64,000 nucleotides of DNA from Eledone cirrhosa (lineage: Eukaryota): assembly GCA_964016885.1 (NCBI GenBank), contig OZ024744.1, positions 69,192,001 to 69,256,000 of the forward strand, given 5' to 3'. The notes under the pieces were generated by a model that saw only the letters and a list, made by a program, of their open reading frames with translations, was not told where the DNA came from and ran no database searches. Positions 39,923-51,083 of this stretch are shown here, one piece after another. Position numbers and translations under genes: made by a program. Numbering within the stretch: the stretch's first letter is position 1; each line of letters begins with the position of its first letter.

Positions 39923-42900
39923 ATGGTGGCTGCCAACTCGTTTTCGAGTACGGCCACTACTTTATATCCATGTAGGAGAACTCCTACCGATGCGCTGAAC
40001 GAGTGTGACCTTTTAGCCCAGCCAGCGACTTGAAAAGTCTGGAACAAACACTACACTTGTGACAATTATTGACACATAGTGCTGGGCCCATGGTACCATG
40101 TGACGACAAGTGCAGAGAGATCTTCACATATAAAGCAATGCCTATGCCGTGAAGATTTTATAGTGAGCAAAGGCACTGCACAAAGCCAGTCCCACTCTCT
40201 TAACCAAGATGATATTTACCAAAAAGAAGAACATGTCAACATCATTGGATACCATCAGAGTTGCAGGTGTTATATCAGAGTTTTCCTTCTCCTAGAATTC
40301 TGCCTTGACAAAGGCTAAGGGGTCATCTCTCCCGGTGATTGTGGATGGCCATTGACTCTTAAGAGGTCCTTTGCCTTTTGACAGGTTTTGTTTTTAGTCC
40401 TGCAGGGTGACTTTGGACATCGGGTCGTTGGCGACTAAACATACATACATACATACATACATACATACATACATACATACATACATACATACATACATAC
40501 ATACATACATACATACATACATACATACATACATACATACATACATACATACATACATACATACATACATACATACATACATACATACATACATACATAC
40601 ATACATACATACATACATACATACATACATACATACATACATACATACATACATACATACATACATACATACATACATACATACATACATACATACATAC
40701 ATACATACATACATACATACATACATACATACATACATACATACATACATACATACATACATACATACATACATACATACATACATACATACATACATAC
40801 ATACATACATACATACATACATACATACATACATACATACATACATACATACATACATACATACATACATACATACATACATACATACATACATACATAC
40901 ATACATACATACATACATACATACATACATACATACATACATACATACATACATACATACATACATACATACATACATACATACATACATACATACATAC
41001 ATACATACATACATACATACATACATACATACATACATACATACATACATACATACATACATACATACATACATACATACATACATACATACATACATAC
41101 ATACATACATACATACATACATACATACATACATACATACATACATACATACATACATACATACATACATACATACATACATACATACATACATACATAC
41201 ATACATACATACATACATACATACATACATACATACATACATACATACATACATACATACATACATACATACATACATACATACATACATACATACATAC
41301 ATACATACATACATACATACATACATACATACATACATACATACATACATACATACATACATACATACATACATACATACATACATACATACATACATAC
41401 ATACATACATACATACATACATACATACATACATACATACATACATACATACATACATACATACATACATACATACATACATACATACATACATACATAC
41501 ATACATACATACATACATACATACATACATACATACATACATACATACATACATACATACATACATACATACATACATACATACATACATACATACATAC
41601 ATACATACATACATACATACATACATACATACATACATACATACATACATACATACATACATACATACATACATACATACATACATACATACATACATAC
41701 ATACATACATACATACATACATACATACATACATACATACATACATACATACATACATACATACATACATACATACATACATACATACATACATACATAC
41801 ATACATACATACATACATACATACATACATACATACATACATACATACATACATACATACATACATACATACATACATACATACATACATACATACATAC
41901 ATACATACATACATACATACATACATACATACATACATACATACATACATACATACATACATACATACATACATACATACATACATACATACATACATAC
42001 ATACATACATACATACATACATACATACATACATACATACATACATACATACATACATACATACATACATACATACATACATACATACATACATACATAC
42101 ATACATACATACATACATACATACATACATACATACATACATACATACATACATACATACATACATACATACATACATACATACATACATACATACATAC
42201 ATACATACATACATACATACATACATACATACATACATACATACATACATACATACATACATACATACATACATACATACATACATACATACATACATAC
42301 ATACATACATACATACATACATACATACATACATACATACATACATACATACATACATACATACATACATACATACATACATACATACATACATACATAC
42401 ATACATACATACATACATACATACATACATACATACATACATACATACATACATACATACATACATACATACATACATACATACATACATACATACATAC
42501 ATACATACATACATACATACATACATACATACATACATACATACATACATACATACATACATACATACATACATACATACATACATACATACATACATAC
42601 ATACATACATACATACATACATACATACATACATACATACATACATACATACATACATACATACATACATACATACATACATACATACATACATACATAC
42701 ATACATACATACATACATACATACATACATACATACATACATACATACATACATACATACATACATACATACATACATACATACATACATGGTGGCTGCC
42801 AACTCGTTTTCGAGTACGGCCACTACTTTATATCCATGTAGGAGAACCCCTACTGATGCGCTGAACGAGTGTGACTTTTTAGTCCAGCCAGCGACTTGAA

Positions 42901-48900: not shown

Positions 48901-51083
48901 CCAGTCCCACTCTCTTAACCAAGATGATATTTACCAAAAAGAAGAACAAGTCAACATCATTGGATACCATCAGGGTTGCAGGTGTTATATCAGAGTTTTC
49001 CTTCTCCTAGAATTCTGCCTTGACAAAGGCTAAGGGGTCATCTCTCCCTGTGATTTTGGATGGCCATTGACTCTTAAGAGCTCCTTTGCCCTTTGACAGG
49101 TCTTGTTTTTAGTCCTGCAGGATGTCCAAAGTCACCCTCCTCACCAAGAAACCTTGGTGGGGTTGCCAGTTTAGTCGCCAACGACCCGACCATGAGACAG
49201 GTTGTACTGGGATACATGTTACCAGTAGCACCAACTGGTGACCAACTGGTGACCTGACATAACATACATACATACATACATACATACATACATACATACA
49301 TACATACATACATACATACATACATACATACATACATACAGACAGACAGACAGACAGACAGACAGACAGACAGACAGACAGACAGACAGACAGACAGACA
49401 GACATACATACATACATACATACATACATACATACATGGTGGCTGCCAACTCGTTTTCGAGTACGGCCACTACTTTATATCCATGTAGGAGAACCCCTAC
49501 CGATGCGCTGAACGAGTGTGACTTTTTAGTCCAGCCACCGACTTGAAAACTCTAGCACAAACACCCCACTTGTGACCATTATTGACATATAGTGCTGGGC
49601 CCATGGTACATGTGATGACAAGTGCAGAGATATCTCCAGATATAAAGCAATGCCTGTGCCGTGAAGCTTTTATAGTGAGCAAAGGCACTGCACAAAGCCA
49701 GTCCCACTCTCTTAACCAAGATGATATTTACCAAAAAGAAGAACAAGTCAACATCATTGGATACCATCAGGGTTGCAGGTGTTATATCAGAGTTTTCCTT
49801 CTCCTAGAATTCTGCCTTGACAAAGGCTAAGGGGTCATCTCTCCCTGTGATTTTGGATGGCCATTGACTCTTAAGAGCTCCTTTGCCCTTTGACAGGTCT
49901 TGTTTTTAGTCCTGCAGGATGTCCAAAGTCACCCTCCTCACCAAGAAACCTTGGTGGGGTTGCCAGTTTAGTCGCCAACGACCCGACCATGAGACAGGTT
50001 GTACTGGGATACATGTTACCAGTAGCACCAACTGGTGACCAACTGGTGACCTGACATAACATACATACATACATACATACATACATACATACATACATAC
50101 ATACATACATACATACAGACAGACAGACAGACAGACAGACAGACAGACAGACAGACAGACAGACAGACAGACAGACAGACAGACAGACAGACATACATAC
50201 ATACATACATACATACATGGTGGCTGCCAACTCGTTTTCGAGTACGGCCACTACTTTATATCCATGTAGGAGAACCCCTACCGATGCGCTGAACGAGTGT
50301 GACTTTTTAGTCCAGCCACCGACTTGAAAACTCTAGCACAAACACCCCACTTGTGACCATTATTGACATATAGTGCTGGGCCCATGGTACATGTGATGAC
50401 AAGTGCAGAGATATCTCCAGATATAAAGCAATGCCTGTGCCGTGAAGCTTTTATAGTGAGCAAAGGCACTGCACAAAGCCAGTCCCACTCTCTTAACCAA
50501 GATGATATTTACCAAAAAGAAGAACAAGTCAACATCATTGGATACCATCAGGGTTGCAGGTGTTATATCAGAGTTTTCCTTCTCCTAGAATTCTGCCTTG
50601 ACAAAGGCTAAGGGGTCATCTCTCCCTGTGATTTTGGATGGCCATTGACTCTTAAGAGCTCCTTTGCCCTTTGACAGGTCTTGTTTTTAGTCCTGCAGGA
50701 TGTCCAAAGTCACCCTCCTCACCAAGAAACCTTGGTGGGGTTGCCAGTTTAGTCGCCAACGACCCGACCATGAGACAGGTTGTACTGGGATACATGTTAC
50801 CAGTAGCACCAACTGGTGACCAACTGGTGACCTGACATAACATACATACATACATACATACATACATACATACATACATACATACATACATACATACATA
50901 CAGACAGACAGACAGACAGACAGACAGACAGACAGACAGACAGACAGACAGACAGACATACATACATACATACATACATACATACATACATACATACATA
51001 CATACATACATACATACATACATACATACATACATACATACATACATACATACATACATACATACATACATACATACATACAT
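39923..51083 (-). repeat. Tandem array of 11 units (~610-620 bp) of a non-autonomous RTE derivative with (CATA)n(CAGA)n(CATA)n spacers
   Basis: Units start (+ strand, ATGGTGGCTGCC) at ~39923, 42789, 43587, 44396, 45237, 46043, 46872, 47717, 48639, 49436 and 50217. On the - strand each carries a remnant C2H2 finger (CSVCTRAFKSLAGLKSHTRSAH) and an RTE-like tail. Confidence 0.92.
40440..42790. repeat. (CATA)n microsatellite, ~2.35 kb, apparently uninterrupted
   Basis: Directly visible. Confidence 0.97.

Follow-up and report, generated by a model that had tools for sequence, protein, structure and literature searches.

Non-autonomous derivatives of RTE retrotransposons that join the 5' untranslated region (UTR) of a long interspersed element (LINE) to a LINE 3' end are a known class. 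A route from transposon to satellite through insertion-site preference has been published for Drosophila (McGurk and Barbash 2018, in sections of PMC5932611). The class 1a exoribonuclease-resistant RNAs (xrRNAs) belong to another field: parts of PMC8374639 and PMC8078501 describe them as three-way junctions with a C between helices P2 and P3, a U-A-U triple and a first pseudoknot (PK1) of 1–2 bp, a portion of PMC8571300 gives the second pseudoknot (PK2) a range of 2–7 bp, and a portion of PMC5760640 places the Xrn1 halt in the flavivirus xrRNA 5–6 nt before P1. Here we describe a 64-kb window of Eledone cirrhosa DNA (contig OZ024744.1, positions 69,192,001–69,256,000; coordinates below are those of this window), which carries an array of a ~0.6-kb retroelement in two unit types, A and B, whose 5' head resembles a class 1a xrRNA. 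On balance we are inclined to think that the array is a locally multiplied young element and that the predicted knot in each copy stops 5'-to-3' decay and sets the 5' end of its RNA.

Sections of a 2021 review describe xrRNAs as characterized only in viruses and treat eukaryotic xrRNAs as an open question (PMC8374639), and the passages on xrRNA in a 2025 paper mention no transposon (PMC12397905). The titles and abstract openings that our literature search covered, with subscription journals mostly outside that coverage, included none that reports a retrotransposon with a natural xrRNA.

The xrRNA-like head

The motif makes up the first ~63 nt of the unit and occurs in every A and B unit, in an older sister family, D, and in a dispersed solo copy; the first-pass annotation of the window, which had described the array, overlooked it. 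In the first A unit it lies at 43,339–43,401 on the minus strand, which is the sense strand of the array units, and contains P1, P2, the junction C, P3, PK1 and PK2. The best Rfam match in unit A, at its extreme 5' end, is RF01415 (Flavivirus_SLIV; 23.3 bits, E 0.13). The same model is the sole Rfam match in the 5' 480 nt of L210, a marine-metagenome relative (15.2 bits, E 4.7), and stands in row 30 of 32 for family D (16.4 bits, E 4.1). Across the genome (3.0 Gb, 1796 contigs) it gave three matches among the 64 of 216,717 candidates that were scored, all of them to this head and the best at 29.6 bits. The model's three core blocks comprise 31 letters, of which unit A shares 27; the maximum in 400 shuffles is 24. 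The four differences of unit A are two compensated pairs, from C-G to U-A. A descriptor of class 1a features matched once in 4.8 million shuffled bases, and never with a 4-bp PK2.

The predicted pairs hold in 96.7–100% of cells per helix, and for A and L210 the best ViennaRNA structure is the three-way junction. The single C between P2 and P3 is invariant (13/13 and 6/6 sequences). The letters of the U-A-U triple are in place (A-U in 13/13, the U before P1 in 108/110), as invariant letters that leave the geometry itself unseen. In PK1, G-C is present in 12/12 sequences, U-A has become G-U in L210, and the second pair is absent from 11 of 110 heads. PK2 has 4 bp, written CAUG/CAUG, ACUG/CAGU or CUGG/CCAG in different lineages. 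A second, partly decayed copy of the motif, with a compensated PK2 and P1 lost, lies ~270 nt inside the 5' UTR of the autonomous LINE that shares the head (L192, 655–715). No hammerhead, HDV-like or twister match appeared in the unit among Rfam results to E 5–10, nor does the unit contain a hammerhead core motif. By comparison across lineages, the head very probably folds as a class 1a-type junction with pseudoknots, and its RNA would, more likely than not, resist Xrn1.

Relatives and covariation

With the intact open reading frame (ORF) of L192 as query, 88 protein relatives score E 1e-100 or better, and many of them are 54–75% identical to it. Among 80 fetched loci, most of them without a 5' end or just distantly related, three marine-metagenome relatives (L205, L210 and L228) carry the motif at their 5' ends. 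L205 and L210 were part of our covariance model. L228 was not, and the model built without it finds the motif at the 5' boundary of L228 with an E-value of 3.7e-5; the whole head of L228 resembles the unit head and begins at an abrupt boundary.

In an alignment of 13 sequences, 97.9% of cells pair, and five pairs, including three of the four in PK2, change on both sides. This covariation was matched by none of 500 shuffles, and slid partners gave 26–46%; ten of the 13 sequences are close kin from this genome, and the shuffle controls ignore relatedness. For six more distant sequences the alignment misplaces the 5' half and shifts the PK2 strand of L228 by one column, and only P3 and PK2 were counted: 93.3% of these cells pair, and the count of double-sided changes was reached by 28 of 500 shuffles. 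In L210 the 5' strands are made of (GGTCA)n repeats, which in L187 stand ahead of the head.

Searches of viral contigs for patterns of the motif and for relatives of the LINE returned none, as did a search of this genome for the loop pattern of L205 and L210. Two RTE-group LINE relatives (L282 and L284, 36–43% amino acid identity) lie in AT-rich, microsatellite-bearing contigs of a bacterial metagenome-assembled genome; these contigs are probably eukaryotic contamination of the bin.

Where copies begin

Among 30 copies of the head-bearing autonomous LINE, chosen by their downstream sequence, 19 reach the 5' strand of the motif, and 10 of the 11 truncated ones break within it, as judged by eye. 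Of 110 heads, 93–108 conserve each of the positions -1 to -5 before P1, and 45 conserve position -6; copies start ~3–6 nt before P1. Read from sequence, these boundaries fit an RNA whose first nucleotide lies where Xrn1 stalls and a knot in the way of reverse transcription, although similarity to the TATG target could produce part of both patterns.

In the mechanism we propose, copies of the element would be transcribed by read-through, Xrn1 or Xrn2 would trim the upstream flank and halt just before P1, and the RNA left over, unit-length and protected, would serve an RTE partner as template in target-primed reverse transcription. That the knot is used in vivo to set the 5' end we infer from the copy boundaries and by analogy with the ribozymes of R2 and Perere-3.

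Composition and kin of the unit

By its sequence, the unit is a chimeric non-autonomous element with parts from different families. Its first 196 nt (43,202–43,397, minus strand, in A1) coincide with the 5' end of a ~3.7-kb autonomous LINE, with endonuclease, reverse transcriptase and a (TGA)n tail, which we take to belong to the RTE group (L157 on G000:C11; 260 candidates in the genome search). Family D and one further family carry the same head. The middle part matches a second non-autonomous family at 65–72%. The 3' part contains a C2H2 zinc-finger remnant of the end of an RTE ORF (42,856–42,921, minus strand, in A1), 59% identical in amino acids to the finger of the RTE-like LINE at 3,695–7,143, and the 3' terminus of the unit resembles that of the same LINE. 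With an RTE 3' end, no ORF and dispersed copies, the unit has the marks of an RTE-type non-autonomous retroelement. It is not a tRNA-derived short interspersed element, because ARAGORN found 0 genes in 38,000–52,000 and the head is a LINE 5' end. The label "RTE-derived" in the first-pass annotation thus suits the 3' part, with its zinc-finger remnant and RTE-like end, and has to give way to a chimera for the unit as a whole.

Two autonomous elements were considered as its source or partner. The RTE at 3,695–7,143 was rejected as head donor, having another 5' end in 30/30 copies examined; its 3' end agrees more closely with that of family D than with that of A. As mobilizing partner, the head-sharing LINE is at most a candidate, its 3' end being different from that of the unit.

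A second recurring 5' UTR motif, read by eye, occurs at 43,148–43,205 (minus strand); it combines a stem with a short GCC/GGC-closed hairpin and a possible pseudoknot. It recurs in the 5' regions of L206–L209, L220 and L192, twice in L208. Its order is HDV-like, without an obvious P4 or catalytic C, and it has no Rfam match.

Dispersal, subfamilies and targeting

Because all 40 scored A matches (of 1992 candidates) are 100% identical and dispersed, the unit family is, by this sequence measure, very young. Of the dispersed B-type copies, the 23 examined carry 14–17 of the 17 B alleles, and 22 have the 11-bp duplication that marks B. Exact B is rare (two exact dispersed copies among 40 scored), and B alleles make up a few percent of depth at several sites in sequencing run X1. 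Since both types are dispersed genome-wide, A and B predate the array. C910 was considered as a second haplotype of the array but is one of the dispersed copies of B.

Target choice was scored on 52 dispersed copies, leaving out array loci and one duplicate locus. TA/TG-alternating flanks lie upstream of 46 and downstream of 50; among control windows 166 of 884 alternate in this way. Past the 3' end of the unit the sequence follows the target, with TGTA in 27/52 and TATA in 19/52; three or more TGTA occur there in just 15 of 53 copies. Another family member lies within ~1.5 kb at 13 of the 52 loci, and 18 of 19 such neighbors have the same orientation.

These results bear on several first-pass claims. 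The mobility of the unit is borne out by at least 40 identical dispersed A copies together with dispersed B copies, and insertion beside earlier copies by the neighboring loci. A and B are distinct variants, as had been claimed, and should be described as genome-wide subfamilies that did not diverge inside the array. The idea that the element inserts into (TATG)n tracts like its own tail keeps its first half, since microsatellites are targeted, and loses its second, there being no fixed (TATG)n tail.

Words of the unit also occur in 20 sequencing runs (17 coded organism labels, 16 studies), 14 of which have half or more of them; related species, horizontal transfer and contamination are all possible sources. 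None of the runs listed is of RNA, which has no bearing on expression. In run X5 a single contig holds a whole chimeric unit with 11 differences from B and a CATA flank. P3 is kept there, and a different, longer sequence, whose ends can pair by eye, stands between P1 and the junction C.

The array and its formation

As assembled, the array contains 11 unit starts, in the order A-B-B-A-B-B-A-B-B-B after one truncated, 5'-rearranged copy, u1. All lie on the minus strand. The three A units are 608 bp each: A1 (42,790–43,397) is identical to at least 40 dispersed copies, A2 (45,238–45,845) is identical to A1, and A3 (47,718–48,325) has one B allele and one private change, so that the A bodies are 0–2 substitutions apart. 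The seven B units, 623 bp each and identical to one another in body, are B1 (43,588–44,210), B2 (44,397–45,019), B3 (46,044–46,666), B4 (46,873–47,495), B5 (48,640–49,262), B6 (49,437–50,059) and B7 (50,218–50,840). B differs from A by 17 substitutions, the 11-bp duplication (which falls within P2 of the motif), 5 extra 5' letters and a 1-bp deletion. The ten units span 8.3 kb, and the A-to-A periods are 2448 and 2480 bp; the three A-B-B periods form a higher-order repeat. The first-pass annotation had read the layout correctly: ten complete head-to-tail units of ~610–620 bp and a rearranged one, their order in a ~2.45-kb higher-order repeat, and a split into A and B by diagnostic variants that include the duplication.

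It had also given the spacers the form (CATA)n(CAGA)n(CATA)n. This is so for all ten spacers after A or B units, which are (CATA)n(CAGA)m(CATA)k, 156–312 bp and all of different length. The last, (CATA)15(CAGA)14(CATA)32 at 50,841–51,084, resembles the nine inter-unit spacers and is followed by single-copy flank. It is not so between u1 and A1, where a pure (CATA)587 run of 2348 bp lies (40,440–42,787); the run is perfectly pure and close in length to one A-B-B period, and may be an expansion or an assembly artifact. The u1 copy (39,924–40,439, minus strand, 516 bp) is older, 5'-truncated and 96.5% identical to A; its 5' end contains two short inverted pieces of the head, and it lacks the xrRNA-like motif. 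The solo copy that had been cited for mobility needs corrections: it lies at 59,637–60,244 on the plus strand, opposite to the array, and is a third variant, neither A nor B (10 and 17 substitutions), with its motif at 59,633–59,695. A copy of family D, with the same head and the motif at 39,331–39,393, occupies 38,737–39,393 (minus strand). Among the 40 of 3010 candidates scored in a junction search, no comparable array was found elsewhere, just pairs or short clusters.

The spacers indicate how the array grew. The TCTG block occurs within 150 nt of 0/53 dispersed copies, its CAGA form being confined to this array in that comparison, and the exact A-spacer junction occurs once in the genome; the compound spacer was therefore copied locally, together with its units. 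A second locus, C21, holds a pair of identical units (0/622 differences) duplicated with its spacer. The right flank of the array is single-copy. We thus regard local duplication as highly probable. Downstream of a CAGA block there would have been two independent insertions, one of A and one of B; crossing-over within the CATA tracts on their flanks would have produced B-B-A (in sense order) and then three copies of B-B-A, and the spacers would have drifted faster than the unit bodies. The position of A behind a CAGA block may reflect two alleles, a block duplicated beforehand or conversion, each of which is possible. The array is, then, a local pile-up of a young mobile element and an ordinary case of a transposon starting a satellite. 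Of the earlier claims here, local amplification by unequal exchange gains from the array-only CAGA block and the unique A-spacer junction, which support duplication; a satellite in formation is matched by the tandem units and higher-order period, although a single ten-unit array is an incipient satellite at best.

Other elements surround the array. A LINE 3' fragment with what we take, from its motif by eye, to be a restriction-like endonuclease domain lies between CATA tracts at 39,475–39,910 and adjoins it, and the whole of 38.7–51.1 kb resembles nested insertions in one microsatellite. Copies of another LINE, with reverse transcriptase and a zinc-binding region, lie at 13,773–14,558, 16,560–19,335 and 26,097–27,992; at least two end in (AAT)n, and we presume a resemblance to Dong/R4-type microsatellite-targeting elements. 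Two frames of a different reverse-transcriptase element, presumably Penelope-like, occupy 30,353–32,441. Elsewhere in the genome (G000:C5, 12.5–13.1 Mb), four RTE copies, L129–L132, have identical upstream flanks ~170–220 kb apart, a pattern of large tandem duplication or assembly repeat.

Alternative explanations

A number of observations weigh against a decay-stopping head on a locally multiplied element. First, scores of 15–30 bits are far below the Rfam cut-off for RF01415 (54.5 bits), L228 has no match to this model, and sub-cut-off matches also occur in 7 of 14 control genomes; because the score fails the cut-off, our claim is that the head may work like a class 1a xrRNA, and not that it belongs to RF01415. 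Second, the three core blocks and the descriptor were picked after the match had been seen, and L210 and L228, with 22/31 core letters, fall within the shuffle range. Third, when pseudoknots are ignored, as in ViennaRNA, B, D and the second copy in the LINE favor other folds, and folding z-scores are near zero, none of them notable. Fourth, the covariation rests on about five lineages, the letters of the U-A-U triple and the junction C contribute none because they never vary, and the close relatives L206–L209, L215 and L220 have no motif in the 5' sequence examined. Fifth, the sequence 5' of P1 is similar to the TATG target, which blurs the 5' boundary, and the breaks in the loop may reflect microhomology to that target. 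Sixth, a search for an enzyme partner for the 3' end of the unit found none. Finally, the order of units is that of the assembly, in which the pure CATA run of 2348 bp is about as long as one higher-order repeat.

The most serious alternative is that the same fold does another job, such as binding of the reverse-transcriptase protein, an aid to translation or an unknown ribozyme, and that an internal promoter sets the 5' end. Covariation speaks for structure and not for function, some relatives carry a different motif, and the use of 5' ribozymes by other elements without long terminal repeats is described in portions of PMC8501958. The second motif copy inside the 5' UTR of the autonomous LINE could be counted on the same side, but flaviviral xrRNAs also come in tandem. 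Another job would leave unexplained both the class 1a core letters at positions of tertiary contact and the starts of copies just before P1, and the unit has neither a ribozyme match in Rfam nor a hammerhead core. We regard this alternative as possible and on the whole unlikely.

A second alternative concerns the array: its units might have been added singly by repeated insertion, or by re-insertion of a multi-unit RNA, or might in part be an artifact of assembly. Neighboring insertions are indeed common in this family, and the unit bodies are identical though every spacer differs. However, the rarity of exact B makes seven independent B insertions unlikely, the CAGA block is missing from all 53 dispersed copies, the period-3 order requires duplication of a block, and the right flank is single-copy. 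We consider such an origin improbable.

That the motif is a chance product, a (GGTCA)n-like 5' repeat and an ordinary hairpin weakly matching one of 4227 models, would suit the E-values of 0.13 to 9, the flat z-scores and the repeats at L210 and L187, but it is very improbable given the excess of core letters and the near-absence of the descriptor in shuffled sequence, the double-sided changes in the loop-to-downstream pairing, and the independent match at an element boundary in L228.

Comparison with known systems

Returning to the decay-stopping head, one can go further. It is possible, and we offer this tentatively, that an RTE-group lineage of marine animals depends for the maturation of its RNA on a genuine class 1a xrRNA, sharing ancestry with the flavivirus element through capture in either direction, and that non-autonomous families took the head to obtain full-length, protected templates from read-through transcripts. 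If true, this would be the first class 1a xrRNA fold in a cellular genome outside an integrated virus. If the head does resist Xrn1, the means by which LINEs fix their 5' ends would include exonuclease stalling beside promoters and ribozymes, and the finding would bear on the origin of the flavivirus fold and supply new RNA-stabilizing parts. The 63-nt candidate, with its natural compensatory variants, makes the question of eukaryotic xrRNAs testable.

The array itself is a case of a known type. Like the Drosophila transposon arrays described in sections of PMC5932611, it combines a target preference, head-to-tail neighbors in a burst of activity and local expansion (~16 copies for hobo); it differs in that two subfamilies form a three-unit higher-order repeat and that microsatellite spacers supply the homology.

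The unit resembles other non-autonomous RTE derivatives in being non-coding and ~600 bp long, with an RTE-type 3' end, no tRNA gene and many near-identical copies. Here, in contrast, the head derives from one LINE family and the 3' end from another, and the middle is common to a third family, itself non-autonomous.

Should the motif prove functional, it would place a known viral fold in new surroundings. With the flavivirus class 1a xrRNAs (RF01415; Murray Valley encephalitis, Zika and dengue viruses, or MVEV, ZIKV and DENV) it shares the predicted P1-P2-P3 junction, the single C and the U/A-U triple letters, a PK1 of 1–2 bp, a PK2 of 4 bp, a hairpin after PK2, 27/31 core letters and, in the autonomous LINE, tandem copies. 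The viral elements lie in a 3' UTR, whereas this one occupies the 5' terminus of an animal retrotransposon; its L3 is longer, its downstream hairpin is unrelated in sequence and its score is below the Rfam cut-off. The viral class is further marked by a ring of 15–16 nt and by its resistance to Xrn1. The 5' ribozymes, HDV-like in R2 and twister in the RTE element Perere-3, are likewise structured RNAs that mark where a LINE begins at its 5' boundary, and their proposed role is to free an RNA of unit length from a longer transcript (in portions of PMC8501958). Where those RNAs would cut themselves, the 5' end proposed here, in a unit that matches no ribozyme family, would be made by a host exonuclease brought to a halt.

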